NCBI GenBank assembly: GCA_038046685.1
Contig: JBBSVT010000074.1
Coordinates: forward strand, 389 to 64,388
DNA: 64,000 bases
Direction of reading: 5' to 3'
From: Nanobdellota archaeon
GTDB lineage: Archaea; Nanobdellota; Nanobdellia; Woesearchaeales; GW2011-AR4
Positions 1,477-24,749 of the stretch are shown here, in pieces. Made by a program: the position numbers and the translations under genes. Each line of letters begins with the position of its first letter. Within the stretch, counting starts at the first letter, position 1. Below the pieces are notes generated by a model. It saw nothing but the letters and a program-made list of their open reading frames with translations, made no database searches and was not told the origin of the DNA.

Positions 1477-3426
1477 TTGGCAAGGCTGAGCGATGTGCCA
1501 AAACAAAATAAAAAAACTATTATAAACCAGGGTATCATACCTATAAAGATGCTTACTGAAGAATTAAAAAAAGGGGTATATTTTCCTTATTCTGCTGTAA
1601 GGGATGTTCAAAGTGACATGATTTCTGATGTTTACAGCGCCATTAGTGAAAAAAAGCACGCCATTATGCATGCTCCTACTGGCATTGGAAAGACAATCGC
1701 GGTATTAGCCCCTGGTTTGTCCTTAGCCCTAAAACAAAACCTAACAATATTCTTCCTTACATCAAGGCAAACCCAGCATAAAATTGTGATTGACACCTTA
1801 AAGCAAATCAAACAGAAATTTAACCTTGATTTTGATTGCGCCGACATCATTGGCAAGCAGTGGATGTGCTTGCAAAACGGAGTCGAGTCAATGCCATCGG
1901 GTCAATTTCATGAGTACTGCAAATCATTAAGAGAGGAAAGCCAATGTGAATTTTACCTTAATACGAGAAAGCAAAATTTGCAGCCAACCGTTGATGCTAA
2001 GCAGTCAATTGAAGAATTAAAGCAGGAAGGGCCTTGCCATGTTCAAGAATATATTAAGAAAGGTAAGCAAAAAAAATTGTGCCCTTATGAGTTAGCAACA
2101 TTAACAGCAAGCAATGCGCAAGTAGTCATAGCAGATTATTATTACATATTTAATCAGGGAATAAGGCAGAGTTTTTTGCTCAAAATAAAGAAAGAACTTG
2201 AAAACATCATTTTAGTTGTAGACGAGGCGCATAACTTGCCAACACGAATAAGGGAGCTTTTGACGCAAAAAACTTCAAGCTTGGCGATTGAGAGCGCGAA
2301 AAAAGAGGCAAGAAAATATAATTATGAGGAAACAGCACAAAACCTTGAAATTGTTGAGAATGCCCTTTTTGAAGTTGGCAAAAATATAGAAAACGAAGGC
2401 ACTGTCAGCAGGAATGAGTTCATTGATGCAATATGTAAATGCAAAGATTATGGAAACATTTTAACAGAGTTATTATTCATTGGCGAAGACATAAGAGACA
2501 GGCAAAAAATAAGTTATATATTAAGCGTTGGTAAATTTCTCGAGGCATGGCTTGGAACCGATAATGGGTTTGGCAGAATACTTACAAAAACAGTTGACAG
2601 TAAGCTGAAAATAAGCTTAGCTTACAGATGCTTAGACCCTTCGCTGGCTGCAAAGGAGATTATTGAGAAAAGCTATGTAACCATACTTATGTCTGGAACT
2701 TTAACGCCAACCGCAATGTATAAAGACCTGCTTGGCTTTGCCGGCGATGTCGTTGAAAAAGAATACGAAAGCCCGTTCCCAAAGAAAAATCGGCTAAATT
2801 TGGTAATTCCAAGAACCACCACAAAGTTTGTCGAGAGAAATAACAGGCAGTTTAACGAAATATCGAGGATTTGCTCTGAAATTGTCAATTTAATAAATGG
2901 AAATTCAGCTATATTCTTTCCAAGTTATGAGCTGATGTTAAATATCAATGAGCATTTTAAGGAAAATTGCAGCAAACCAATATTTATTGAAAAACAAAAA
3001 ATGACGAAAAAAGAGAAAGAGGAATTATTGGCCGTTTTCAAAAGCTATAAGGATAAAGGTGCTGTGCTTCTTGGCATATCCACGGGCTCTTTTGGAGAAG
3101 GCATAGATTTGCCTGGTGTGCTTAAGTCAGTTATTATTGTTGGACTGCCTTTAAACAAACCAGATGTTGAAGCGAAGTTGTTGATTGAATACTATGACGA
3201 TAAATTTGGCAAAGGCTTTGAATATGGGTATGTGTCTCCTGCAATCACAAAATGCCTACAGAATGCTGGAAGATGTATAAGGTCAGAGACAGACAAAGGC
3301 GCAATTATTTTTCTTGATGAAAGATTCATTTATAGAAATTACTATCAATGCTTTCCAGAGGATTGGGATATGGAGGTTAGTTTGGATTATGAAGAGATTT
3401 TGAGGGAGTTTTTTGGGCGAAAATAA
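1477..3426 (+). CDS. xpd: XPD/Rad3 (DinG-like) DEAH-box DNA helicase with Fe-S cysteine cluster
   Basis: Q-motif FPYSAVRDVQ, Walker A HAPTGIGKT, DEAH box VVDEAHNL, four Cys between helicase motifs (CADIIGKQWMC, CEFY, CPYE). Track start is TTG; an ATG at 1546 is an alternative start. Confidence 0.85.
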   Translation: MARLSDVPKQNKKTIINQGIIPIKMLTEELKKGVYFPYSAVRDVQSDMISDVYSAISEKKHAIMHAPTGIGKTIAVLAPGLSLALKQNLTIFFLTSRQTQHKIVIDTLKQIKQKFNLDFDCADIIGKQWMCLQNGVESMPSGQFHEYCKSLREESQCEFYLNTRKQNLQPTVDAKQSIEELKQEGPCHVQEYIKKGKQKKLCPYELATLTASNAQVVIADYYYIFNQGIRQSFLLKIKKELENIILVVDEAHNLPTRIRELLTQKTSSLAIESAKKEARKYNYEETAQNLEIVENALFEVGKNIENEGTVSRNEFIDAICKCKDYGNILTELLFIGEDIRDRQKISYILSVGKFLEAWLGTDNGFGRILTKTVDSKLKISLAYRCLDPSLAAKEIIEKSYVTILMSGTLTPTAMYKDLLGFAGDVVEKEYESPFPKKNRLNLVIPRTTTKFVERNNRQFNEISRICSEIVNLINGNSAIFFPSYELMLNINEHFKENCSKPIFIEKQKMTKKEKEELLAVFKSYKDKGAVLLGISTGSFGEGIDLPGVLKSVIIVGLPLNKPDVEAKLLIEYYDDKFGKGFEYGYVSPAITKCLQNAGRCIRSETDKGAIIFLDERFIYRNYYQCFPEDWDMEVSLDYEEILREFFGRK

Positions 3427-3835
3427 GAATTGTTCGCTATTAATTTTTATTACCATTTTCAGGTATTGAAGGATTCACAAAATGACGGCTTTTCAATCCC
3501 GTCCGGGAGATTTTTGGTGAAACTTCTCTTACTAAGTCCTGAGGAAATTCTGATTATCTTCTTGGGATAAGTTTTCCTCTCTGAAGCTCGTCATTTACCA
3601 TACCCACAAGCGTTCTGAGACCTTGTCCATAAACCGTTCTCGGTGAATTAATATATTGAATAAAATCCTTAGCCACACTTATCAAATGCTCGTTAATATA
3701 CACTTGCATTTCAGTCATTATCCAAGAAAGTGGACTTCATCTTAAAATTTTTAGGTTATTGTAATTAATATACATTTCCCTATACTAGTATCTAAAATAG
3801 AAATATTTATATACTTGTAATGCTTTCTGCTAAAA

Positions 3836-4246
3836 ATGGTTATCCTTTTTGACAGGTTTAACCTGCCAGAGGACGTATATGAAGTTGTTTTTGCGACAAA
3901 GCAGCAAATCATTGTGGCTAAACTGCTTATAGAGATGATGAAGGATAATGGCGGTGAGATAGGCAAAACAGAGATGTCTTTGTTTGCAACCAAGCTTCAT
4001 GAAGGTAATCTGATTACAGATCTTATAGAGGAACCCCCCTATAAAGGGAAGAAAGTGAAAGTCAGCTACAATAAAAGGCAGTTTTATGACAGAATTTTAA
4101 CTCCAATGAAAAGCATGGGTATAATTGATTACGACCTTTACAAGAAAACATACAAGGTAAGCGACAAATTCAACAAAGATTTACAGCATATTGGCTTGAT
4201 GTGGATAAGGGAATTGCGTAAACCGCCAAAATCTCTAGTAAGATAA
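3836..4246 (+). CDS. hypothetical protein
   Basis: 136-aa ORF, no motif recognised. Confidence 0.4.
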   Translation: MVILFDRFNLPEDVYEVVFATKQQIIVAKLLIEMMKDNGGEIGKTEMSLFATKLHEGNLITDLIEEPPYKGKKVKVSYNKRQFYDRILTPMKSMGIIDYDLYKKTYKVSDKFNKDLQHIGLMWIRELRKPPKSLVR

Positions 4247-7122: not shown

Positions 7123-7194
7123 GGGCCCATGGTCTAGTGGCTAGGACACAACCTTCACAGGGTTGGGGCAGGAGTTCAATTCTTCTTGGGCCCA
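7123..7194 (+). tRNA. tRNA-Val (anticodon CAC), CCA not encoded
   Basis: Manual cloverleaf: acceptor GGGCCCA/TGGGCCC, D-stem GTCT/GGAC, anticodon stem CAACC/GGTTG with loop TTCACAG, T-stem AGGAG/CTTCT with loop TTCAATT, discriminator A; 72 nt. Confidence 0.75.
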
Positions 7195-14065: not shown

Positions 14066-15418
14066 TTACCTGAATCTTCTGCGATAAGTTCCTCTTCGTT
14101 CACCAAAATGCTGGCTAGGTCTTCTTTCACCAGAATCGTGATAGCTTTTTTCTTCTCTTGAATGATAAGGCTTTTTCTGCTCCCCATACCTATGCGTTGG
14201 ACGGCCTTCATATCCTCGTCTTGGACCGCTTCTTGAATGAAAATCATTTCTCTGGCCTAAACCATGTCCTCTTTGCGATGCAAAAAACGGAACCCTCTGG
14301 AATTGTGGCAATTGAATCTGCTGCACAACTATTGACCTGTCATCGAGAACATTTCTAAAATTGTCATAGTCCGGCTCTGAAATCAAAGATATTACCTTGC
14401 CCTCGCTTCCTGCTCTTGCAGTCCTGCCAATCCTGTGTATGTACTCCTTTGAAGTCTTGGGGCAGTCATAATTAATTATATGGCTTACGTTCTTTATATC
14501 AAGGCCTCTGGCAGCAACATCACTTGCGACAAGTATCCTTGCTTCATTCCTGTGAAACATCTCTATTGATTTTTTTCTCCTGTTTTGTGAGAGGCCGCCG
14601 TGCAAACTTAATGATCTTACCCCGTTCATGGACAGATTTCTTCCTACAATATCCACCCTGTTCCTTGTTGCGCAGAAAATAATTGCCAGCTTAGGGGCTT
14701 CGTGCTTCAAGATGTGTATCAGGAGCGAAAATTTGTCTCTTGAGGTAATCTGATAGTAATACTGCTCCATCTTTCCCTTGTCAACATAAGACTGCAACTT
14801 GACTTTTGCTGGATTTTTCATGTAGTGTTCGACAATAGTGTGAACTTGATGCGAGATTGTTGCGCTGAAGAGCAGCGTCTGTCTTTCCCTTGGAACTTGT
14901 GATATTATCTTTTTGACATCCTCAATGAATCCCATCTCAAACATCTTATCAGCTTCGTCCAAAACTAGAATCTTGACTCTACTCAGGTCAATTGTAGCTC
15001 TCTGCAGATGGTCAAGGATTCTTCCAGGAGTGCCAACAACAATGTCCGCGTATCTAAGATGCTCAATCTGCGGGTTTATAGAAACTCCGCCATAAACAGA
15101 TATTGAATTTATTCTCTTGTATTTTGAGAATTTTCTTAGTTCAATAGCTACTTGCTCGCAAAGCTCTCTAGTCGGGACAAGAATTAGAGACTGAATGCCA
15201 TGATTATGCAAAATCTTTTCGAGTATTGGAAATCCAAATGCAGCTGTCTTGCCTGAGCCTGTCTGCGACTGGCCTATCACATCTCTTCCTTCTTGGATTA
15301 AAGGAATGCACTTTTTCTGTATATCGGTCATTTCCTCAAACCCAAGCTCCAAAAAAGCTTTCTTCAGCTCCGGCTGCAGATGAATTCCTGAAATCATTGT
15401 GTATTTACCTTCTTCCAT
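14066..15418 (-). CDS. DEAD-box ATP-dependent RNA helicase with basic Arg/Gly-rich C-terminal tail
   Basis: Q-motif, GQSQTGSGKTAAF, PTRELCEQV, TPGRILD, LDEADKMFEMGF, SAT, HRIGRTARAG; TATA ATATTTAAAA at -28..-19 of the ATG. Confidence 0.9.
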   Translation of the reverse strand: MEEGKYTMISGIHLQPELKKAFLELGFEEMTDIQKKCIPLIQEGRDVIGQSQTGSGKTAAFGFPILEKILHNHGIQSLILVPTRELCEQVAIELRKFSKYKRINSISVYGGVSINPQIEHLRYADIVVGTPGRILDHLQRATIDLSRVKILVLDEADKMFEMGFIEDVKKIISQVPRERQTLLFSATISHQVHTIVEHYMKNPAKVKLQSYVDKGKMEQYYYQITSRDKFSLLIHILKHEAPKLAIIFCATRNRVDIVGRNLSMNGVRSLSLHGGLSQNRRKKSIEMFHRNEARILVASDVAARGLDIKNVSHIINYDCPKTSKEYIHRIGRTARAGSEGKVISLISEPDYDNFRNVLDDRSIVVQQIQLPQFQRVPFFASQRGHGLGQRNDFHSRSGPRRGYEGRPTHRYGEQKKPYHSREEKSYHDSGERRPSQHFGERRGTYRRRFR

Positions 15419-16058: not shown

Positions 16059-17534
16059 TCACCCCAAAAACCCTCTAACAAAACCAGCTCTTGTTATGTT
16101 CTCTGTCAGTTGTCTGTAATCCTTTCTTTTGAAATCCTGCATGATTATTGACGTTATTTTCTTGTGCTTTTGGTCAGTTTCGTAATCAATTAATTTGCTT
16201 GACGCTTTCACTTTATCAATAATCTCTTTAGGAAAAATTTGTAAGTTAGCTTCATTCAAATGTTTCAATGAATCCTCTAAATCGTTATCAAAATTCCTGT
16301 AAATATCCCTGATAAAATCAATCTCTTTGCCGGTTAAAGCGTTTAATCCAAGAATTTCAGGCGGCAAGCCATAAGAATATAATGCAGCACAAAATGTTAT
16401 TGCCCTTGGCAGCTTAATAGTACTGACATTTCTCGAATAGCCAAACAAGCCGATATGCAGCTTTCTTTTTCTCCTGGAAGGAATATACTGCGCCATGTCG
16501 TTGATGTGCTTTGCCAGCAATCTAACCTGTTTTTGATATTCTATTATCAATTTTTCAATAATTGGAATGCATCTTTTCTCATCAACAAAAATGGGTTTTG
16601 AGGGTTTTGTATTATTAAGGAAATCAACCGCTTTGTTCACTTCTTGGATATTATAGTCATATTTAAAAGCAGATTGCAGCGTGTATGTGAAAACACTTGG
16701 ATAGCCTTGAATGCAATTCTTAATATTTGTCGGCTTGAAATTGCCTCTGAAAGGCGCAGAGCCGCATCCAAGTATTGGCAGAATATCCACAGATATCTTT
16801 TCCTCCAGCTCTTTTAATTTCTGAAACGAAATCTTAAGCATAAGAATTGTTGCCAAATTGCCATAATTCAAAGCAGGATCGCTTCTTGCCAGCCAAACCC
16901 GCTGATAGTCTTTGATTTTTTCTTGAGTCAAGAACCCTTCGACAATTTTGTCAGCATTTAAAATTGGATTTTTTTCTTCAATCAATGGAATTACTCTTAA
17001 AAAATCCGGCTGGAAATTTCCAATCCATTCTGCGATTGTAATGTCACCGCTCAGCTTGTGGTGCTGTTTTCCGATTACATGCTTCTTGTAGTATTCAGCT
17101 ATTCTGACAAGCTCGTTGGAGTTAGTTGTCATTGGCAAAGCAATCTCAAAAATTGGAGCTACATCTTCGCCATAAAATAATCTTGCAGCATCAAAATTTC
17201 TTGGAATGCTTTCCAAAGTCTCGAGCAAAATCTTTGCCTCACTTTTCTCAACATTTGGATTTGGAACCCTTAGAGTTAGAAAAACGTCTTTTCCAAGAAC
17301 GTGCTTGCTGAAATATGGCTCATATTTGCTAAGCAGCTTTTTAACAACAAAATTATCAACTTCCTTGCCTTCACAATCCCATAGCTGCTCTTTGCAGTGT
17401 ATGTGGGAAAAAGAGTAGAAAACCTCCTTTATCTCGTCTTCGCCGCCAAGCTCTGAAGCGTCCGAAAAAAATGGATTGTGAACATTATCAGGATGCTGAG
17501 TGGACATTGTACGAGAAACATTGTAAGCTGGCAT
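16059..17534 (-). CDS. archaeal-type phosphoenolpyruvate carboxylase (PepcA)
   Basis: N-terminal ...RTMSTQHPDN... signature and a length of ~490 aa typical of the PepcA family. Confidence 0.8.
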   Translation of the reverse strand: MPAYNVSRTMSTQHPDNVHNPFFSDASELGGEDEIKEVFYSFSHIHCKEQLWDCEGKEVDNFVVKKLLSKYEPYFSKHVLGKDVFLTLRVPNPNVEKSEAKILLETLESIPRNFDAARLFYGEDVAPIFEIALPMTTNSNELVRIAEYYKKHVIGKQHHKLSGDITIAEWIGNFQPDFLRVIPLIEEKNPILNADKIVEGFLTQEKIKDYQRVWLARSDPALNYGNLATILMLKISFQKLKELEEKISVDILPILGCGSAPFRGNFKPTNIKNCIQGYPSVFTYTLQSAFKYDYNIQEVNKAVDFLNNTKPSKPIFVDEKRCIPIIEKLIIEYQKQVRLLAKHINDMAQYIPSRRKRKLHIGLFGYSRNVSTIKLPRAITFCAALYSYGLPPEILGLNALTGKEIDFIRDIYRNFDNDLEDSLKHLNEANLQIFPKEIIDKVKASSKLIDYETDQKHKKITSIIMQDFKRKDYRQLTENITRAGFVRGFLG

Positions 17535-17812
17535 GAATTCTAGAATTCAGCAACTATTTAAATAGATTGCGAGGTTGTGAAGTGAATTACATTTACAAAA
17601 TCAACAAAAAGTTTATATGCATAAAACCGAATTGAACGAGTATATCATTCAATATTTACATAAATACCGAGGGATGGCAATTTAGCTTAATCTTTGTTAG
17701 GTTCAATAATTTTTAGTGGCTAAACGGTGAATATGGGAACATTTCGACGGATAACGAAATGAATAAGGGGGTAGTTCTTAACGATGTAAACTAAATGAGA
17801 TGAGAAAACCTA

Positions 17813-18310
17813 TTACTTTGACGCTTTTTCTTCAATTGCTAGTTTTAGCATACCTCTACCATCATAATTCCAATATGTAATATCTTGCTCAATAAAAAGC
17901 CACTTTAAGATTTTAAGTAATAGTTCAACTTCAAGACCTTTTTTAAAAACCATCCTTCTTTTTTGTAAAATTTCGTCAGGTTCTTGGCAATTCCAAACTT
18001 CTTCAATTGCTTTCAATAAAATTGGAAAATCATTTGGATTATCTATTTTCTTTATCTCTAAATCCTTAAAAACAGTCTGGTGACTCGGCCTTTTATCAAT
18101 AACCTCTTCCATCTTTTCTACCCATACTTGAAAATCAATTCCTTTGTTAAGAAAGGTGGGTCTCAAAAGATAAATTTTTCTACCATCTTTTAGAGTTTCA
18201 ACATAGTATCTATACCTTGTTACATGTTTTTTACCTTCTTTCCAATAACCTCCTTTTTCAGATAGAAATTTATTTACAGTTTGCTTTCGTAATTCATCTC
18301 TAAACAACAT
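17813..18310 (-). CDS. hypothetical protein
   Basis: 165-aa ORF, no motif. Confidence 0.4.
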   Translation of the reverse strand: MLFRDELRKQTVNKFLSEKGGYWKEGKKHVTRYRYYVETLKDGRKIYLLRPTFLNKGIDFQVWVEKMEEVIDKRPSHQTVFKDLEIKKIDNPNDFPILLKAIEEVWNCQEPDEILQKRRMVFKKGLEVELLLKILKWLFIEQDITYWNYDGRGMLKLAIEEKASK

Positions 18311-18503
18311 TATTTATAAAAATAAATTTGATAAATTTTCTTAACATTTTTTTGTTATGACTATTTAATGGGATTATTGTATTTATCTCTATATTGCAAT
18401 CAGTTTTATTGAAAGCGTCTTCAATACTTTTTGCATTGATTAGTTCAATATTTTTTATAACATTTTCACCATTATAAAAACAGTAGATTACACCATACTT
18501 CAT
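18300..18503 (-). CDS. hypothetical small protein
   Basis: 67-aa ORF overlapping the previous stop; very AT-rich. Confidence 0.25.
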   Translation of the reverse strand: MKYGVIYCFYNGENVIKNIELINAKSIEDAFNKTDCNIEINTIIPLNSHNKKMLRKFIKFIFINNVV

Positions 18504-18586
18504 TTTAGTTAAAATTAAATAAAAACAATGTTTATATAGTTTATGTAGATTTATGTATAGAAATCAATAGAAATAAAGAATTAAAG

Positions 18587-19357
18587 ATGAACCTATCTAT
18601 ATACCAAAAAGAAGTTTTTGAAAAATACCATAGCAATTCACAAATAGCTAGAGTTCTTACAGAAAGTTGGTTCAAAGAAGAGATGTACTGTCCAGCTTGT
18701 TTACACGAAGAATTGATAAAAAATCCTAATAATACGAAAGTTATAGATTTTTTATGTAGTAATTGTGACAATTCTTTTCAATTAAAGAGCCAATCCTCAT
18801 CATTTCACTCTAGAGTTTTGGATGGAGCATTCAATCCAATGATTGAAACAATAATAGAAAGGACAAATCCGAACTTCTTTTTTATGCACTATTCAAATGA
18901 AGATTGGGAAATAAATAATTTATTACTCATTCCAAAATTCTTTTTTTCAGAATCCATTATAGAAAAACGAAAACCCCTTTCTGAATCAGCAAGGCGTTCT
19001 GGATGGATTGGATGCAATATATTGCTATCAAAACTGCCTATTTCTGGAAAAATTGGTATAATAGAAGATAAAAAGATAATGCCAAAAAATCAAGTTCAAA
19101 GAAATTGGGAAAAATTATATTTCTTAAATAATCAAAAACCAGAAAAAAGGGCATGGACTGCTGATGTATTGTACTGCATTGAAAAGTTAAATAAGAAAGG
19201 ATTTACTCTAAATGATATTTACAATTGTGAAGGTTATCTATCCAAGCTTCATCCAAATAATCAACACATACAAGCAAAAATTCGACAACAATTACAAATT
19301 TTGAGAGATAAAGGAATTCTTGAGTTCAAAAATAAAGGGAATTACACAATAAAATAA
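18587..19357 (+). CDS. DpnI-like (Dam-replacing/DRP family) methyl-directed type IIM restriction endonuclease
   Basis: Blocks recalled from S. pneumoniae DpnI: YCPxC...DFxCxxC, NPNFFF, ARRSGWIGCNI, KIRQQLQILRDKGILEF at the C-terminal winged helix. Confidence 0.75.
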   Translation: MNLSIYQKEVFEKYHSNSQIARVLTESWFKEEMYCPACLHEELIKNPNNTKVIDFLCSNCDNSFQLKSQSSSFHSRVLDGAFNPMIETIIERTNPNFFFMHYSNEDWEINNLLLIPKFFFSESIIEKRKPLSESARRSGWIGCNILLSKLPISGKIGIIEDKKIMPKNQVQRNWEKLYFLNNQKPEKRAWTADVLYCIEKLNKKGFTLNDIYNCEGYLSKLHPNNQHIQAKIRQQLQILRDKGILEFKNKGNYTIK

Positions 19358-20139
19358 TTGTTGGAGATTCTTTAGAAGAATTAAAAAAGATTCTTTCTGA
19401 ATCAGTAGATCTAGTATTTGCTGATCCGCCATATAACATGTCTAAGAAAAAAGGGTTGGGATGGAAATACAGCAACCACATAACTATGCAAGAAGAATGG
19501 GATATATTCTCTAAAGATGATTATCTTCAATTTAATCAAAAATGGATAAAAGAATGTTTAAGAACTTTAAAGCACGGTGGCAGTTTATGGATATGTGGTT
19601 CTTTTCACAATATTTACCAAGTTGGATTTATCTTACAACACATAGAAGATGTAAAAATCAACAATAGTATAGTATGGTTTAAGCCAAATGCTCAGCCAAA
19701 CATAACTTGCAGAATGTTTACAGAAAGCACAGAACATTTAATCTGGGCATCTAAAAATGGGAATGGGCAGAAATGGAAATTCAATTATGAAGAAACCAAA
19801 AAATTAATTCAAGATCCTCTAAATCCTGAAGGTAAACAAACTAGAAATGTTTGGTGGATTCCATTAACCCCAAGAAAGGAAAAATGGGCAGGATCCCATC
19901 CAACTCAGAAACCTTTAGAGTTACTCAGAAGAGTGATCTTATCCTGCACCAATGAAGGAGATACTGTTTTAGATCCATTTTTAGGTTCTGGGACTACTTC
20001 TGTGGCATCAAAAATGCTTGGAAGAAATTCCATCGGTATTGAGAAGGACAAAAGATATTATGATATTATAAAAAAAAGGTTAAATGAGCCGCAAAAGAAA
20101 ATAGAAGAATATGTCGAAGTTGGTCATTTAAATGGCTAA
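19354..20139 (+). CDS. beta-class N6-adenine/N4-cytosine DNA methyltransferase (motif IV DPPY N-terminal, motif I FxGxG C-terminal); non-ATG start inferred
   Basis: Frame open from 19336: KIIVGDSLEELKKILSESVDLVFADPPYN precedes the first ATG (19438); C-terminal VLDPFLGSGTTSVASKMLGR. Only ATA/ATT candidates lie upstream of DPPY. Confidence 0.75.
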   Translation: MIVGDSLEELKKILSESVDLVFADPPYNMSKKKGLGWKYSNHITMQEEWDIFSKDDYLQFNQKWIKECLRTLKHGGSLWICGSFHNIYQVGFILQHIEDVKINNSIVWFKPNAQPNITCRMFTESTEHLIWASKNGNGQKWKFNYEETKKLIQDPLNPEGKQTRNVWWIPLTPRKEKWAGSHPTQKPLELLRRVILSCTNEGDTVLDPFLGSGTTSVASKMLGRNSIGIEKDKRYYDIIKKRLNEPQKKIEEYVEVGHLNG

Positions 20140-21100
20140 TGAGATCGTTAGAGAAATACCTGTAAACCTGTTTGAGATTAATCCTGAAAATCCAAGACTA
20201 ATTTTTGACCAGGAAAAACTCGATAGACTTCTAGAGTCAGTTAAAGAACGAGGAATTCTTGTTCCGTTAAATGTATTTATCAATGATAATAAAAAGTATA
20301 CAATAATAGACGGAGAAAGAAGGTATAAAGTAGCATTGCAACTTGGTTTGACAAAATTACCAGTTATAATAAATGAAAGGCCACGATCTGAAGATTATGT
20401 ACAAGATATGTTCCATATACACAACTTACGTGAACCATGGGAATTAGTTCCAACGGCCATTAAACTCAATCAGGTTATAGAAAATTTTTCAAAAAAACAA
20501 GGACACAAACCTACGGAAAGAGAATTAAACAAATTAACTGGGTTAACTATATCGGAGATTAGACGATGTCGTCTTATTCTTACATTTCCTGAAAAAATCC
20601 AAGACCTAATGTTACAAGATGAAGCTAAAACTAGCAAAGAAAAAAGCATTATTGGAAAGGATAAACTTCTAACAGAAGATTTTTTTATAGAAATGGCTAA
20701 AAATATAATTTCCCCTTTAGAAAAAAATAATCCAAGAGCCTTTAAAGAAATTGGAGGGAGTAAAAAGATATTTGAAGCGGTTATAGAAAAAAGAAAAAGT
20801 GGGCTAATAAAAAACATCGTATCATTGAGACCCTTATCAAAGTGTATAAGAGATCGTCCAATAAAAGGTGGTCAAGCCATTAGAAGTTTTGTTCAAAATC
20901 AAAATTTATCCTCTGAAGATTTGATATCCAAGGTGGGATTGGTATTCGATTTATATAAATTTGAAAGGAATATGAATGTTTTTTATGGTGCCCTCGATAA
21001 TATTCCAAAAGATTTAGTTGCAAAAGATAAAGAGAATATAGTTAAAATTTTAAGAAAAATGAAAAATTCTATCGAACAAAAATTGAAAGAGTTAAGGTAA
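20132..21100 (+). CDS. ParB-like nuclease (ParB/Srx) domain protein
   Basis: ILVPLNVF...YTIIDGERRYKVALQLG (GERR box); ATG overlaps the MTase stop, implying translational coupling. Confidence 0.7.
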   Translation: MANEIVREIPVNLFEINPENPRLIFDQEKLDRLLESVKERGILVPLNVFINDNKKYTIIDGERRYKVALQLGLTKLPVIINERPRSEDYVQDMFHIHNLREPWELVPTAIKLNQVIENFSKKQGHKPTERELNKLTGLTISEIRRCRLILTFPEKIQDLMLQDEAKTSKEKSIIGKDKLLTEDFFIEMAKNIISPLEKNNPRAFKEIGGSKKIFEAVIEKRKSGLIKNIVSLRPLSKCIRDRPIKGGQAIRSFVQNQNLSSEDLISKVGLVFDLYKFERNMNVFYGALDNIPKDLVAKDKENIVKILRKMKNSIEQKLKELR

Positions 21101-21104
21101 TGGT

Positions 21105-21932
21105 ATGGCACTTCTCAAACCAAACGAGCTAGATAGTAAGATTCGTAATAAGCTATTCTCATTCTTAAAGAAAAAATACAAAGTTTATGTACATAAAAAT
21201 TATAGTGTTTATAATAATTTTGCCCCAGATTACTATTTAAAACAAAAAAATGGTAAGAAAACAATTGTTATATATAGAAATCCTCCAGAATTTCCAAATG
21301 TTCAGAGCGAGGATATTAGGACAGCTTTAAAAGAAGGTATAAGTGTTTATATTGCTATATTCAATCATGATTATAATCCATTATTAGACGAGTTAATAAA
21401 TAAGTGCGATACTATTTATGGTGCAGGGGTACTACAAATATCAAATTCTTTCGATTGTGTAGTTCTACAACCTGCTCTTCTTGATGTACCAAAATCAGAT
21501 AATATTATTGAAAATAGAATAAAGATTTTTATAAGTTCAAAGTTATGGATTCCCGAGAGAGATATAACTAGAAATGTTTTAAAAAAAGTTAAATATCAGC
21601 CAATATGTGTAGAAAGGATTCCTGGAGAAAAAACAATTCAAGAAAATTGTTTCAAATGGATAGAAAAAAGTCAATTTTTTATAGCGATCGTAACACGTCA
21701 ATATAGGCAGATGGTAGATAAAGAAATAAAACATGCACTTAAAAAGAAAAAAAAAGAAAAATGCTTATTCTATATTAAAAATGATTGTTTTCAAGAGAAA
21801 AAACTAAAACTTAAAAATTTAATTAAATTTATTCAGAAAGAAGCAACTTTTCACAAATTTGTTAATGAAACCGAGCTTAGAAAAATGCAACCAAAGCAAA
21901 TTGCTGAATTGATTGGTAAAAATACAAAATAA
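21105..21932 (+). CDS. hypothetical protein, C-terminal half weakly TIR-like
   Basis: KIFISS...GEKTIQENCFKWIEKSQFFIAIVTRQY resembles TIR betaA and the alphaC/betaD pattern; no further support. Confidence 0.35.
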   Translation: MALLKPNELDSKIRNKLFSFLKKKYKVYVHKNYSVYNNFAPDYYLKQKNGKKTIVIYRNPPEFPNVQSEDIRTALKEGISVYIAIFNHDYNPLLDELINKCDTIYGAGVLQISNSFDCVVLQPALLDVPKSDNIIENRIKIFISSKLWIPERDITRNVLKKVKYQPICVERIPGEKTIQENCFKWIEKSQFFIAIVTRQYRQMVDKEIKHALKKKKKEKCLFYIKNDCFQEKKLKLKNLIKFIQKEATFHKFVNETELRKMQPKQIAELIGKNTK

Positions 21933-22072
21933 TTTTTTCTGAACTAAAAACGGAACTCCCATAACAAACGAAACGACTAAAACTAAATGTCCCCCTTAAT
22001 ACTTGTTCTTGATTGCTCACTTTGTTCGCCTGATAGAACTACGAGCCACTAAAAATTACTTTGCGGACGCAG

Positions 22073-22098
22073 GTTTTCGGAACTTCGTAACCGAAAAC
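22073..22098. terminator. 8-bp perfect hairpin between convergent genes
   Basis: GGTTTTCGG-aacttcgtaa-CCGAAAAC lies between the 3' ends of 21105..21932(+) and copA(-). Confidence 0.3.
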
Positions 22099-22112
22099 GA
22101 TCTTAACAAAGA

Positions 22113-24749
22113 TTAACCTTTCCATCTTCTCATTACCAAACTATTGCTTACAACACTTACCGAGCTGAAAGCCATTGCTGCCCCTGCTATGATTGGATTT
22201 AAAAGGAATCCAAAGAACGGGTATAAAATTCCTGCAGCTATTGGGATTCCTGCTGTATTGTAAAAGAAAGCCCAGAACAAGTTCTGCTTTATTTTTTTTA
22301 TAGTATATGAACTTAATTTGATAGCCTTGGTTACATCCCTTAAGTCATTTTTTATCAAGACTATTGAGCCAGTTTCGATTGCAACATCAGTACCAGCGCC
22401 TATTGCAATGCCAACATCTGCTGCTGCCAATGCAGGCGCGTCATTTATGCCATCTCCGACCATGGCAACAACCCTGCCTTCTTTTTGCAGCTGTTTTATT
22501 TCGTTTTCTTTGTCTTGCGGCAGAACTTCTGCCAGAACCCTATCAATTCCCGCCTGAGAAGCTATTTCCTTTGCGACTCTTTCATTGTCGCCTGTAATCA
22601 TAATCACTTCTTTGCCTATTTTATGAAGCTCTTCAATCGCTTCTTTGGAATTTTCTTTTAAAGTGTCAGTGATTGCAATCAGCCCAATTGCTGATTTATT
22701 AACAGACACTATTACTGTTGTTTTTCCCTGTTCCTCAAGCACGCTTATTTTTTGCCCTATTTCATCATCAATTTTTATTTTGTGCTGCTGCAATAATTTT
22801 TTATTCCCGACAAGAATGTTATATTTCTTATATCTTGCAATAACTCCTTTGCCGCTTACCGCCTCAAATTCAGATGCCTCGCTAACTGCAATATTTTTGC
22901 TTTTTGCAGAATTAATTATAGCCTCTGCTAAAGGGTGCTCTGAGCCCTTTTCGGCAATTGCAGCAAACCTTATAACATCATTTTCAGCATATTTATCGTC
23001 TAAAACAACTATGTCCGTTGCCTCAGGTTTGCCTTTTGTCAATGTGCCTGTTTTGTCAAAAACTATTGTTGTCAGCTTATGGGCTGTTTCAAGAGCCTCT
23101 GCATTTTTTATCAGAATTCCATTTTCAGCGCCTTTTCCGGTGCCAACCATAATGGCAGTGGGAGTTGCCAAGCCAAGAGCGCAGGGGCATGCAATTATCA
23201 GGACAGCCACAAAAACTTCAAATGAGAAAATAAATGGGTTGGTTGGTTGCATAAAATTCGGCGCTATGAAATACCAAAAGGAGAATGCAAGAATGGCAAT
23301 TAAAATTACGACAGGCACAAAAATACCTGAAACTTTATCTGCAAGCCTTTGGATTGGGGCTTTTGAAGCCTGGGCTTCTTCAACAAGTTTGATGATTTGG
23401 GAAAGCGTTGTCTCAGAGCCAACCTTTATCGCTTTAATCTTAAGCAGGCCGTTTTTGTTTAATGTTGAGCCTATTACAATGTCATCTTTGTTCTTTGAAA
23501 CTGGAACGCTCTCTCCTGTGATCATTGACTCATCTACATAAGAAGAGCCGAAAATTACAATGCCGTCAGTTGCTATTTTTCCACCTGGTTTTGCAATGAA
23601 GGCATCGCCAACCTGCAATTCCTCAACTGGAACTTCAAGTTCTTTGTCGTTTCTGATTACAATTGCGGTTTTTGGCTGCAATCCAATTAGCTTCCTTATC
23701 GCTTCAGAGGCTTTGCCTTTCGTTAAAGCTTCTAGATATTTGCCCAGCAATATGAAAGATATTATTATTGCAGAAGTATCATAATAAATTCCTCCGGTAA
23801 AGGAGTTTGGGAATAATGTTGCTAACATGCTATATACATATGCCGCAGAAGTCCCAAGTGCAATCAAAGTATCCATATTTGCTGATTTGTTCATTAAGCC
23901 AATGTAGGTTCCTACATAAAACCGGTAACCCAAGAGAATTTGGATAGGAGTTGCCAGCAACAGCAATGCATAGTTTTGATAAGGGAAAGATACCTTGAAC
24001 CATTCTGGAAAAGAAAGAATAAAAATAGGGATGCTTAACAAAAATCCAATAATTACTTCAATTTTTAGCTTTTTTATTTCTTTTTCCCTTGCTGCCTTTT
24101 CCGTGTCAGCCAACGCGCCAGAAGCTTCAACTGGCTCATAGCCGGCTTTCTTAATCGCATTTTTGATTTCCTCTGGATTCGTCAATTCAGGGTCATATTT
24201 TATAAAAGCATTTTCATTGGCATACAGCTCTTTTGAAGTTATTCCCTTCAGCAAATTTAGGGAACCACTGACAGTTCCTACGCAATGAGGGTTGTCCATT
24301 CCAATTATTTTTAATTTGATGCTGGCAGCATTTCCAGCTGTGTTATTCTCCTCAATAACTTTATAGCCTGCCTTCCTGACTGCATTTTTCAATGAATCCT
24401 CATTTGTTTTTGTCCTGTCAAATTCTACATTAGCTTTTTCAGACGCGAAATTCACGTTTGCTTTCACTACACCTTCTGTCCCGGAAAGTGCCTTTTCAAT
24501 AGTTTGGGCGCATGTTGCGCAATGCATTCCTAAAATGGAAATTGATGTTTTTTTGACATCGCTTTCATACAAATTCTTTGGCTTTTCATTCAATGAAATT
24601 TTTTTAAATGATTTTTTGTCAGGTGTTTTTTTGTTAAACTTATCGCAGCAGCTTTTGCTGCAGAAATAGTATTTTTTTCCACTTCTAGTTAATTTAAACT
24701 TCGCTGTTCCCTCAGCAATTTCCATTCCGCATACAGGGTCTTGTGGCAT
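22113..24749 (-). CDS. copA: copper-translocating P1B-type ATPase with N-terminal TRASH/YHS-like domain and two HMA domains
   Basis: N-terminal PVCGMEI...YYFCSKSCC; two GMxCxxC HMA motifs; [18 protein letters not shown]. Confidence 0.9.

Follow-up and report, generated by a model that had tools for sequence, protein, structure and literature searches.

A DpnI-family nuclease gene and a small ORF (orf67) were found to occupy the divergent control region of a GATC restriction–modification cassette in the window, i.e., the whole 64,000-nucleotide stretch of DNA that was analysed, and the methylase gene of this cassette lacked a canonical start codon. In related cassettes, the gene order was partner (−), regulator (+), and methylase (+), as exemplified by L098. 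In the window and in L087, which carried the same cassette in another genomic context, orf67 and the DpnI gene stood in place of the regulator gap, with the junction within the first six methylase codons. Compared with the relatives, the cassette lacked the small regulator gene, the methylase ATG along with the first six methylase codons, and the first ~18 codons of the partner gene (orf165). The sequence-only reading of this DNA had correctly recognised the adjacency of the DpnI-like gene and the methylase, whereas the missing start, the divergent partners, and the insertion of DpnI into a GATC cassette had been overlooked.

Boundaries and accessory genes of the cassette

The G+C content was 27–32% over 18–22 kb and 35–41% on either side, which bore out the AT-rich defence island proposed earlier. 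The island was ~4.4 kb long and had inverted repeats at both ends. The left arm of this bipartite repeat (17684..17721) bounded the island, and the right arm (22044..22119) overlapped the 3′ end of the Cu-ATPase gene. Positions 17684–17704 paired with 22099–22119 (18 of 21 complementary), and 17707–17721 paired with 22044–22058 (15/15); neither motif was found elsewhere in the window. DNA homology to L087 started at 17688, and the inverted-repeat core TTTTTAGTGGCT was also present beside the cassettes of L087, L011, L068, and L148. The mobility of the cassette was supported by the low G+C content, the flanking inverted repeats, and the L087 copy in a different genomic context. The four ORFs of the earlier description were real and correctly placed (18587–19357, 19438–20139, 20132–21100, and 21105–21932, all on the plus strand), but its extent for the unit missed the flanking inverted repeats and two minus-strand ORFs (17813–18310 and 18300–18503).

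The first of these minus-strand ORFs, orf165 (17813..18310), was a shortened member of a 183-aa family and, by comparison with this family, lacked its first ~18 residues. It is a candidate GATC nuclease and partner of the methylase; its family (orf183) also pairs with Dam-class methylases. The second, orf67 (18300..18503), overlapped the start of orf165 by 11 nt. Its homologues occurred only in L087 and L088 (84% identity), so that it was confined to the DpnI-carrying variant of the cassette, and searches of Pfam, PADLOC, and further profiles gave no family match. The divergent region between orf67 and the DpnI-like gene (18504..18586) had a core of ~60 nt that was nearly identical to L087, whereas the flanking genes shared ~80% DNA identity (judged by eye). 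This region contained the repeats TTTATATAG, TTTATGTAG, and TTTATGTATAG and may serve as a promoter or operator.

Downstream of the methylase, a ParB/Spo0J/Noc-like protein of 322 aa (20132..21100, plus strand) combined an N-terminal domain with a GERR motif, an HTH, and a 140-aa C-terminus. It matched Pfam ParB_N (E 4e-19) and TIGR00180 (79.6 bits, cut-off 58.45), and residues 4–178 matched Spo0J, Noc, and ParB in the PDB with E values from 2.5e-13 (best) to 1.6e-8. Although described previously as split, it was one intact ORF; its proposed translational coupling to the methylase agreed with an overlap of 8 nt between the ORFs. In L092 (76% identity) and in L121/L123 (36% identity), the ParB-like gene likewise came after this methylase, its start codon overlapping the methylase stop. 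The next ORF (21105..21932, plus strand; 275 aa) encoded an N-terminal alpha/beta domain (1–135) and a C-terminal TIR-like/DUF4062 domain (about 140–270). The TIR-like C-terminus suggested earlier was matched in the profile search by DUF4062 (E 6.5e-7; 29.9 bits, cut-off 24.7), but TIR_2 (24.1 bits) remained below its cut-off of 28. The methylase, ParB-like, and TIR-fold genes are a conserved operon, and a PADLOC search found no system match for this grouping.

Identity of the nuclease and the methylase

The DpnI-like gene (18587..19357, plus strand; 256 aa) encoded a Type IIM endonuclease with a PD-(D/E)XK domain and a winged helix, which was predicted to depend on Gm6ATC. It matched Pfam DpnI (E 1.6e-67) and DpnI_C (E 1.2e-29), PADLOC mREase_II (E 1e-85), and DpnI in the PDB (4esj, E 7e-67), and was 47% identical to DpnI. 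The blocks NPNFFF, RRSGWIGCNI, and KIRQQLQILRDK were present, and the protein was a genuine member of the family, as had been claimed. Functional residues were compared with those reported for DpnI (PMC3424567; PMC4117772). E25, D53, and K66 were kept as E26, D54, and K67, and so were all four Zn cysteines, the DNA-contact and methyl-pocket residues N48, R126, L129, R135, W138, and G140, and the winged-helix residues K229, R231, and Q232. Every Gm6ATC-contact and methyl-pocket residue was thus retained, and only the catalytic Glu was altered (E64 to Q65). The loss of catalytic residues, against which the sequence-only reading had cautioned, was therefore half observed, at E64 but not at E26, D54, or K67. 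Glutamine stood at the E64 position in 116 of the 120 closest homologues, with E26, D54, and K67 invariant, and is the norm in this clade. Among the GTDB homologues, the Q variant occurred in 12/12 methylase-adjacent copies and in 30/68 others (Fisher P = 2e-4).

The methylase (19354..20139, plus strand) belonged to the beta class of N6-adenine DNA methylases, in the DpnA/CcrM lineage. The gene (called as 19438–20139, 233 aa) matched Pfam N6_N4_Mtase (PF01555, E 3e-55), with CcrM as the best PDB match (E 2e-53), and DPPY preceded FxGxG, in agreement with the class assigned previously. Among plasmids, the best match was a DpnA-type enzyme, the second methylase of the pSRQ700 operon, in which a Dam-like methylase, a beta methylase, and a nuclease are encoded. 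The identity was 45–46% to DpnA-type and ~40% to CcrM-type enzymes. At 80 metagenomic loci, the methylases were 73–89% identical to that of the window, and some of these loci were operons with DpnII-family nucleases or DpnM-like methylases. In the nearest relative, L091 (89%), a DpnII-family nuclease (PF04556) preceded the methylase by 15 nt. L148 and L155 combined a DpnII-family nuclease, a methylase of this family (74–77% identical), and a DpnM-like methylase. A DpnM-like methylase directly followed the methylase homologue in eight loci, and these enzymes retained the equivalents of EcoDam K9, L122, R124, and P134. The methylase family is hence linked to DpnII-type partners, and the window methylase is most likely a GATC m6A enzyme. 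A methylase of different specificity, which had been offered as a way out of the conflict with DpnI, was not supported by these relatives; at the level of prediction, the window has a GATC methylase beside a nuclease that retains DpnI specificity, the combination that had been considered lethal if both are expressed.

Methylase start and selection

In the translation of 19336–20139, the catalytic motif IV (DPPY, 19423..19434) preceded the first ATG (19438), and the ORF as called therefore began downstream of this motif. No ATG, GTG, or TTG was found in the methylase frame between 19336, where the frame opens, and 19438. On direct reading of the sequence, the only possible initiation or restart codons ahead of DPPY were ATA and ATT (19354..19359), which overlapped the DpnI stop codon (TAA, 19355–19357); the ATAATT/TAA overlap was also present in L087. 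The methylase may be initiated at these codons. The N-terminus of the family reads MKTTHK-IIIGD, and a canonical in-frame start upstream of IIIGD, mostly an ATG at −6, was present in 78/78 relatives checked. Compared with these 78 loci, the start codon was missing only in the window and L087, both of which were DpnI-linked. The D of DPPY was kept in 76/76 methylases without a DpnI link, and the sole D-to-N change (NPPY) among 81 aligned copies occurred in the DpnI-linked L100/L089. No other difference between the DpnI-linked copies and the rest was found in the conserved columns. The methylase lesions are therefore specific to DpnI-linked copies, although the DpnI-linked methylases of L106 and L157 carried no lesion.

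Purifying selection acted on all four genes, with dN/dS values of about 0.05–0.10. Compared with L087, dN/dS was 0.10 for the DpnI-like gene (dS 1.2), 0.08 for the methylase (dS 1.3, protein identity 83%), and 0.047 for orf165 (dS 0.43, protein identity 96%); the value for orf67 was 0.11. Methylase copies without a DpnI link had values of 0.02–0.09, i.e., the same range as the window copy. The 27 codons (81 nt) before ATG 19438 differed from L087 by 10 changes, of which 7 were synonymous and 3 non-synonymous (binomial P ~0.003). Moreover, stops and frameshifts were absent from the methylase (260 codons) and orf165 (165 codons) in both lineages, and these genes are not decaying. The low dN/dS and the constrained codons before the ATG suggest that a useful methylase is translated and that DPPY is part of it, which a gene that is simply switched off would fail to explain. 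Recombination with functional alleles might also produce such values, and dS indeed differed between the genes.

Competing readings and known systems

In 22 of 80 GTDB loci, DpnI homologues sat amid the remnants of DpnII cassettes or near DpnA-like methylases that were damaged, e.g., L011 (dpnA′ – DpnI – dpnB′), L068, L074, and L061. The presence of DpnI genes within GATC-cassette remnants, across phyla and flanking Neisseria drg, is known biology. In Acidobacteriota, the pairing of a DpnI homologue with an intact DpnA-like methylase located 13 nt upstream was kept over deep divergence. The proposed check of GATC depletion was positive; GATC was the most depleted short palindrome in host DNA, with 45 sites observed and 154 expected outside the island. 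Such depletion is typical of genomes with DpnI-like enzymes (PMC4687349).

The favoured reading, held tentatively and at slightly below even probability, is that DpnI was inserted into a GATC cassette as its active arm and that the methylase was curbed by the loss of its start. The setting would be a Nanoarchaeota (DPANN) genome and, in it, a mobile defence cassette of ~4.4 kb between inverted repeats. The cassette would be built on a GATC restriction–modification module, widespread in DPANN metagenomes, that combines a divergently oriented small nuclease gene (here orf165), a short regulator gene of the winged-helix type, and a DpnA-like beta-class m6A methylase, to which some copies add the co-translated ParB-like gene and the TIR-fold gene. 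The DpnI-family gene and orf67 would have arrived jointly and recombined into the divergent control region, deleting the regulator gene, the methylase ATG with six codons, and ~18 orf165 codons. Since one cell cannot accommodate DpnI and a GATC methylase at full activity, the missing start is read as conflict management. DpnI would be the active restriction arm, host GATC sites would be essentially unmethylated, and the methylase would be made in trace amounts, if any, by ribosomes that restart at AUA/AUU upon termination at the DpnI stop codon. Both this low output of the methylase and the unmethylated state of the host sites are predictions. Counter to this reading stand the constraint on the methylase and orf165, the lesion-free DpnI-linked methylases of L106 and L157, and the intact Acidobacteriota pair.

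It is also conceivable, but unlikely, that all parts are active in a joint 'mark-and-cut' system, in which a trace of the strand-separating DpnA/CcrM-type methylase acts mainly on incoming DNA that is single-stranded or hemimethylated and turns it into fully methylated GATC, the substrate that the DpnI-like enzyme then cuts. Unmethylated duplex host DNA would be a poor substrate and safe, and the weak DpnI-coupled translation of the methylase would be design, not damage. Purifying selection on every gene, including the methylase codons before the ATG, the stop/restart overlap kept in two lineages with DpnI dS 1.2 apart, the conserved Acidobacteriota operons, and the Q variant in all methylase-adjacent homologues are consistent with this. 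DpnA reportedly methylates single strands, an observation ascribed to Cerritelli and co-workers in 1989. To recognise its site, CcrM opens up the two strands and reads the target one (PMC6787082). However, in most relatives the methylase has to shield duplex host DNA from the partner nuclease, so that double-stranded DNA must be among its substrates. The single strands exposed at host replication forks would be marked too, single-strand methylation followed by copying would yield hemimethylated sites only, methylases next to DpnI genes elsewhere are often visibly broken, and the scheme is without experimental precedent. Improbable as well is a Q-type DpnI that is not a constitutive double-strand nuclease, but instead reads Gm6ATC, acts as a nickase, or is cryptic or kept inhibited (perhaps by orf67). 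The host may then be GATC-methylated, the orf165–methylase system would work classically, and an enzyme unleashed upon infection would make the cassette an abortive-infection device. The E64A mutation abolishes DpnI activity (PMC3424567), and the experimentally active Neisseria Drg has E beside a broken methylase (PMC4269198); the Q in 12/12 methylase-adjacent homologues and the restriction of orf67, itself under selection, to DpnI-carrying cassettes point the same way. Against it, the invariance of E26, D54, K67, and the Zn cysteines among Q-type homologues argues for retained catalysis, and the QXK variant is on record for active modification-dependent nucleases of the Mrr type (PMC3874153 Table 4; PMC11037411). 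Furthermore, 30/42 Q-type GTDB homologues stand alone, as expected for working Type IIM enzymes, and a harmless nuclease would make the methylase lesions unnecessary.

That the methylase and orf165 are relics of a recent inactivation, with low dN/dS due to repeated homologous recombination of the DpnI cassette into functional alleles, was considered similarly improbable. The fourfold variation of dS between neighbouring genes (0.43–1.3), the closer identity of the methylase to the unlinked L091 (89%) than to L087 (83%), the lost 5′ ends of both genes, and decay as the common outcome elsewhere would fit. But the junction-proximal 81 nt must travel with the cassette and still show only 10 differences with synonymous bias, the 260 and 165 codons are free of stops and frameshifts in both lineages, and the orf165 protein is 96% identical despite its dS of 0.43. 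The least probable account is that of two independent defence genes, the methylase having a specificity other than Gm6ATC. This would explain long coexistence under selection most simply; Loop-2B, which reads the first site bases in CcrM, resembled neither DpnA nor CcrM types, and the DpnA-type identity barely exceeded the CcrM-type identity. It is opposed by the DpnII-family and DpnM-like neighbours of relatives that are 89% and 74–77% identical, by D-to-N as the only conserved-column change in DpnI-linked copies, and by the pairing of orf183 with Dam-class methylases, and it leaves unexplained why start loss and NPPY are limited to DpnI-linked copies.

The insertion of the favoured reading would be of one kind with the exchange of DpnI and DpnII cassettes in pneumococcus and with the 'dam-replacing gene' of Neisseria. 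The S. pneumoniae cassettes are described as complementary in PMC4687349, which cites Lacks et al. (1986). As there, a DpnI-type nuclease and a DpnA-methylase GATC system compete for one locus, and the closest annotated relatives of the methylase are DpnA-type, from operons of a Dam-like methylase, a beta methylase, and a nuclease. The pneumococcal cassettes are alternative alleles that are never combined, whereas the window DpnI gene is embedded in the GATC cassette, where it overlaps the methylase gene and shares its transcript; moreover, the partner nuclease is not of the DpnII family, DpnM is absent, and the host is archaeal. Neisseria drg/NmeBII (PMC4269198; PMC516771) is likewise a low-G+C DpnI-family gene that was inserted at the locus of a GATC methylase. 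The DpnA-like methylase of N. gonorrhoeae, about 240 nt downstream of drg, is broken into two ORFs, whereas that of the window is intact and constrained and lacks only its start codon; gonococcal Drg has E as the catalytic residue and H in place of W138, where the window protein has Q and W. In their work on 'avoidance of genomic conflict' and PD-(D/E)XK-wH proteins, Helbrecht et al. (2024; PMC11037411) found DpnI-like genes adjoining predicted 4mC/6mA methylases, which were described as frameshift-inactivated. In contrast, the methylases of the window, L106, L157, and the Acidobacteriota operons had no frameshift and were under purifying selection. The ParB-like protein resembles phage and plasmid ParB–methylase fusions and chromosomal ParB/Noc CTPases in its GERR-motif N-domain and HTH and in its tie to a beta-class methylase. 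In the window, however, the genes are separate, the methylase comes first, a full ParB/Noc-like protein is encoded instead of ParB_N alone, ParA is missing, and a TIR-fold gene follows. In E. coli dcm-vsr, methylase and nuclease genes overlap, the nuclease acts on the sequence context of the methylase, and the downstream gene is translated by coupling. The window pair resembles it in layout only, since in dcm-vsr the methylase comes first, the nuclease serves repair of m5C deamination, and the products are without conflict.

The unusual point is the purifying selection on all four genes, the DpnI/methylase pair included, together with the ParB-like/TIR-fold operon and the inverted repeats. A Gm6ATC cutter directly before a probable GATC methylase ought to be lethal, and still the two genes appear to be maintained in evolution.

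Layout and boundaries of the island

The four plus-strand open reading frames (ORFs) proposed by the sequence-only reading were present at the coordinates it gave, and Pfam domains were found in all of them: DpnI and DpnI_C in the DpnI-like gene (18587-19357), N6_N4_Mtase in the methylase (19354-20139, called from 19438), ParB_N in the ParB-like gene (20132-21100), and DUF4062 with a sub-threshold TIR_2 in the TIR-like gene (21105-21932). The AT-richness attributed to the island was also borne out, with a G+C content of 27-32% over 18-22 kb compared with 35-41% on either side. The contig was derived from a groundwater metagenome (Hainich), and NCBI lists an identical DpnI-like protein under a Nanoarchaeota MAG. 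Two other low G+C ORFs, orf165 (17813-18310) and orf67 (18300-18503), were located on the minus strand just upstream of the four, and neither had a family match in Pfam, NCBIfam or PADLOC. The island interrupted an otherwise ordinary chromosomal stretch of housekeeping genes. The flanking genes encoded a DEAD-box helicase with a long R/G/E-rich tail (14066-15418), an archaeal-type PEP carboxylase (16059-17534), a Cu-ATPase with YHS and HMA domains (22113-24749) and one tRNA (7123-7194).

A bipartite inverted repeat bracketed the island at 17684-17721 and 22044-22119, and its motifs had no further copy within the window. Homology to L087, a related DpnI-carrying cassette in a different genomic context, began at 17688. 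The repeat core recurred beside other DpnI or methylase cassettes in unrelated genomes. The end element spanned about 100 nt and consisted of the core TTTTTAGTGGCT, TTAATCTTTGTTAG before it and G-runs after it, in inverted orientation at the two island flanks. Its other sites were in L087 (7106-7225) and in the comparison loci L011 (5990-6100), L068 (4069-4080) and L148 (9-20). This element may serve a non-autonomous mobile cassette as its terminal repeat or recombination site. The divergent orf67 and DpnI-like genes were separated by an intergenic core of about 60 nt, near-identical between the window (18520-18580) and L087 (7925-7985); the genes flanking it were only about 80% identical. The core contained three TTTAT(A/G)TA(TA)G repeats and the TATA-like TTTATATA; its probable role is that of a bidirectional promoter that includes an operator.

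A viral origin was rejected, because the methylase and the ParB-like protein had no relatives in IMG/VR, where only six weak DpnI-related loci were detected; the whole cassette was not found there either. The Rfam scan of the island gave a sole sub-threshold tmRNA-like match inside the ParB-like gene (20984-21071; 13.4 bits, gathering score 47, E 0.02), which is almost certainly due to chance.

The ParB-like protein matched PF02195 (E 4e-19) and TIGR00180 (79.6 bits, cut-off 58.45, residues 6-168), contained DGERRYKVA (the GERR arginine patch) and a helix-turn-helix, and was similar to Spo0J and Noc in the PDB (E about 1e-13). From its sequence, it is assigned as a full ParB/Spo0J/Noc-type protein. 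The island contained no ParA-like ORF. For the 275-aa TIR-like product, TIR and DUF4062 models had been suggested; DUF4062 was matched (29.9 bits, cut-off 24.7), whereas TIR_2 remained below its cut-off (24.1 bits, cut-off 28). The fold of the protein was of the TIR-like flavodoxin type, and a Glu following strand C was conserved. The genes for the methylase and for the ParB-like and TIR-like proteins recurred together, their stop and start codons overlapping, in L092 (identities of 76% and 60%) and in L121 and L123 (36%); hence, they constitute a conserved operon. No PADLOC system matched it.

The DpnI-like protein and DpnI homologues beside GATC-system genes

The placement of the first gene product in the DpnI family was confirmed by scores over the cut-off for both Pfam domains (PF06044, 227 bits, cut-off 26.7; PF17726, 103 bits, cut-off 23) and by end-to-end similarity to crystallised DpnI (PDB 4esj; E 7e-67, residues 7-253). 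The roles of the DpnI residues were taken from PMC3424567 and PMC4117772. The PD-(D/E)XK catalytic residues of DpnI are E25, D53, E64 and K66, and E64A abolishes its activity (PMC3424567). E25, D53 and K66 were kept as E26, D54 and K67 in the DpnI-like protein, and the metal ligand E64 was replaced by Q65. The Zn-binding Cys4, the residues of the G:C readout (N48, R126, R135) and the methyl pocket (L129, R135, W138, G140) were kept, as were K229, R231 and Q232 of the wH recognition helix, in which only E228 was changed (to Ala).

Among the 120 nearest homologues, 116 had Q at position 64, and the other catalytic residues were invariant. The view that the E-to-Q change denotes a dead nuclease was therefore rejected in its simple form, and Q65 was read as a clade trait rather than a lesion. 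HinP1I, a putative QXK precedent, was not used as evidence. In reviews, Mrr-type modification-dependent nucleases are given the motif (D/E/Q)XK (PMC3874153, PMC11037411). The DpnI-like protein is predicted to cleave in a Gm6ATC-dependent manner.

A total of 6,752 DpnI homologues were found. In a comparison of 80 DpnI-family loci from GTDB genomes, DpnA-, DpnM- or DpnII-type genes or fragments adjoined the DpnI gene in 22, and many of them were visibly damaged. Position 64 was Q in 12 of 12 methylase-adjacent homologues, compared with 30 of the 68 remaining homologues (P = 2e-4 by Fisher's test, with no correction for phylogeny). A clean replacement scar was observed in the woesearchaeotal locus L011 (6271-8856), in the order dpnA', DpnI homologue, 68-aa ORF and dpnB'; dpnA' was 3'-truncated just after FxGxG, and dpnB' encoded a PF04556 DpnII-family nuclease with an internal stop. 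Only fragments of GATC-system genes remained in L068 and L074, and L061, L071 and L076 were frameshifted. In Neisseria gonorrhoeae (NZ_CP119142.1, 7000-13000; locus L186), drg (locus positions 2131-3000) was followed by a DpnA-like methylase in two ORFs (3237-3614 and 3660-3938), and a 151-aa ORF overlapped the end of the split methylase. Gonococcal Drg differed from the island protein at position 64, which was E, and at W138, which was H. This 2.17-Mb record is filed as a plasmid in PLSDB, and its size is that of a chromosome. Frameshifted methylases beside DpnI-like genes were described by Helbrecht et al. 2024 (PMC11037411), and the recurrent presence of DpnI in GATC cassettes agrees with that work, with published pneumococcal cassette exchange and with the 'dam-replacing gene'.

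Broken methylases do not explain the loci of Acidobacteriota. In these genomes, a conserved two-gene operon (L048, 5774-7741; also L065, L026, L043 and L086) consisted of a DpnA-like methylase gene, whose product had a conserved extension of about 100 aa at its C-terminus, and a gene for a Q-type DpnI homologue 13 nt downstream. Both genes were intact over a deep divergence, with protein identities of 62-68% for the methylases and 54-57% for the DpnI homologues.

Predicted target site, usual cassette and missing start codon of the methylase

The beta-class assignment of the methylase was upheld by a PF01555 match over the cut-off (188 bits) and by the location of motif IV, DPPY (19423-19434), N-terminal to motif I (FxGxG, in DPFLGSGTT). 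Its best PDB match was CcrM. A CcrM-like GANTC target was rejected, because the G-reading Arg44 and the rest of Loop-2B of CcrM were not conserved and the operon partners of its relatives indicated GATC; moreover, GANTC was not depleted (observed/expected 0.8). Loop-45 resembled that of DpnA, and Loop-2B was distinct. The best plasmid matches were the second, DpnA-type methylases of pSRQ700 and staphylococcal plasmids, whose operons combine genes for a Dam-like methylase and a beta methylase with a nuclease gene.

A metagenome scan yielded 80 loci with methylases 73-89% identical to that of the window. A PF04556 DpnII-family nuclease ended 15 nt upstream of the methylase in L091 (89% identical), and L148 and L155 contained a DpnII-family nuclease, a window-type methylase and a DpnM-like methylase. 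The DpnM-like methylase was directly downstream in eight loci (2dpm, E 6e-55) and kept the equivalents of EcoDam K9, L122, R124 and P134. The DpnI-linked methylases matched the other copies at conserved columns, apart from a D-to-N change. The sequence-only reading had offered a methylase of different specificity as one way out of the conflict; this was not supported, as orthologues 74-89% identical shared operons with PF04556 nucleases and with DpnM-like methylases. On this strong though indirect evidence, in which the operon partners were regarded as decisive, the specificity is very probably GATC m6A. In the window, tblastn with R.LlaDCHI, its S. aureus homologue, a DpnM-like protein and M.LlaDCHIA detected no DpnII-family nuclease or DpnM-type methylase.

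The suggested GATC count showed that GATC was the most depleted 4-mer palindrome in the window (56 observed, 168 expected), with an observed/expected ratio of 0.29 outside the island. Such depletion is a known signature of genomes with DpnI-like enzymes (PMC4687349). Ten of the 56 sites were in the methylase, ParB-like and TIR-like genes (19408-21686), and orf165, orf67 and the DpnI gene had none. The GATC density of the window methylase, 7.6 per kb, was above that of all its 80 relatives. The idea that GATC had been purged, so that methylating and cutting would be harmless, was rejected: 56 sites remained, and pair-bearing genomes had ratios of 0.3-1.1, like non-pair genomes.

Clustering of the neighbours of the 80 methylases revealed a recurrent layout, in which a small gene in a divergent or convergent slot was followed by the methylase, often with a 95-aa winged-helix gene immediately upstream of it (18 loci). 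The slot was occupied by the orf165 family in about 23 loci (9 by direct tblastn), a second unannotated family in 27, the PADLOC REase_II family in 7, a NOV_C-like protein in 6 and a DpnII-family nuclease in 4. In the window and L087, orf67 and the DpnI gene took the place of the regulator and the intergenic region, and homology to the canonical loci restarted at 19349, within the first six methylase codons. The nuclease slot of the window was occupied by orf165, which had lost the first 18 or so residues of its 183-aa family (orf183). The 254-287-aa 'fusions' of relatives proved to be false extensions of the reading frame upstream, running antisense to the regulator gene, and orf67 and orf165 were accordingly not regarded as a split or fused protein. 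In other DPANN contigs, orf183-family genes adjoined D12/Dam-class rather than beta-class methylases (L183, 3501-5078; L184 and L185, 3501-6041; L182, 3501-7543). Because the family is linked to two unrelated methylase classes, it was tied to GATC methylation, a pattern to be expected if it encodes a cognate GATC nuclease. Two members (P0243 and P0249) are named 'DNA adenine methylase' by NCBI and contained no methylase motif. Family searches gave no match to a nuclease fold or motif for orf165, and a confident orf183-family model (pLDDT 92) matched no fold in the PDB; the proposed nuclease role therefore comes from context. By position and by an obligate-looking linkage to GATC-type methylases, orf165/orf183 is a candidate cognate GATC nuclease.

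The first ATG of the methylase (19438) fell after the catalytic DPPY, and public gene calls gave a 233-aa product without this motif. The frame was open from 19336, after an in-frame stop at 19333-19335, and contained no ATG, GTG or TTG between this stop and 19438. The sole conceivable starts were ATA (19354) and ATT (19357), both of which overlapped the DpnI stop codon TAA (19355-19357). Each of the 78 related methylases checked had a canonical start codon in frame ahead of IIIGD, mostly an ATG six codons before it (N-terminus MKTTHK-IIIGD); such a start was missing only in the window and L087 methylases. Of the changes that separated the window from L087 in the 27 codons upstream of the ATG, 7 were synonymous and 3 non-synonymous (binomial P ~0.003), and in view of this synonymous bias these codons appear to be translated. 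A -1 frameshift DpnI-methylase fusion at A-AAA-TAA was possible in the window; by inspection, the slip in L087 would land on TAA, and this fusion was rejected as not conserved. The D-to-N change in DPPY was a single case among 81 aligned copies and was also DpnI-linked. The occurrence of start-codon loss and D-to-N only in DpnI-linked copies looks like attenuation rather than loss.

Selection and competing readings

Between the window and L087, dN/dS was 0.047 for orf165 (dS 0.43), 0.11 for orf67 (dS 0.76), 0.10 for the DpnI-like gene (dS 1.18) and 0.08 for the methylase (dS 1.31). The values were 0.02-0.09 for methylases without a DpnI link and 0.08 for a third DpnI-linked pair (L106 and L157). 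The four genes are under strong purifying selection, unlike simple decay.

The best reading, held tentatively and at somewhat less than an even chance, is the capture of a DpnI gene by a GATC restriction-modification cassette. The resulting conflict would be handled by leaving translation of the methylase to weak restarting at AUA/AUU, over the stop codon of the DpnI gene. Four rival readings were kept alive because the methylase and orf165 are under constraint. The foremost of these, cooperative 'mark-and-cut', is unlikely; in it, invader DNA that is single-stranded or hemimethylated would be converted by a trace of DpnI-coupled methylase into the sole form that DpnI cuts. It is slightly less likely that the cassette, with both DpnI- and DpnII-type GATC restriction arms and a GATC methylase, is kept by selection and works as a unit, through mark-and-cut or as an epigenetically bistable or abortive device. 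In the latter case, a methyl-directed nuclease would be restrained, perhaps by orf67, against the methylated host genome. If the cassette works as a unit, the Acidobacteriota operons of a DpnA-like methylase and a Q-type DpnI would be the same system.

An inhibited, cryptic or non-cutting DpnI-like nuclease receives a little less weight again; the replaced metal ligand would suit it, and the clade-wide Q beside invariant catalytic residues argues against it. Marginally below this is the reading of the methylase and orf165 as relics masked by recombination, with which the damaged genes of other loci are consistent; the low dN/dS values would then reflect recombination. A non-GATC methylase is the least probable of the four; the distinct Loop-2B would allow it, and the operon partners oppose it.

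DpnI-type and DpnII-type systems are textbook examples of mutually exclusive restriction alleles, and the rare cases of a DpnI-like gene next to a methylase are accounted for in the literature by broken methylases. In the window locus and its relatives, a DpnI gene is joined stop-to-start to a predicted GATC methylase under strong purifying selection, and either a very weak restart at a non-AUG codon would keep the conflict in check or the enzymes would cooperate. Furthermore, the locus provides three leads: orf183, a widespread DPANN family tied to two classes of GATC methylase, with an unmatched fold, is a candidate new GATC nuclease; no catalogued defence system corresponds to the conserved operon of methylase, ParB-like and TIR-fold genes; and the end element of about 100 nt may mobilise such cassettes.
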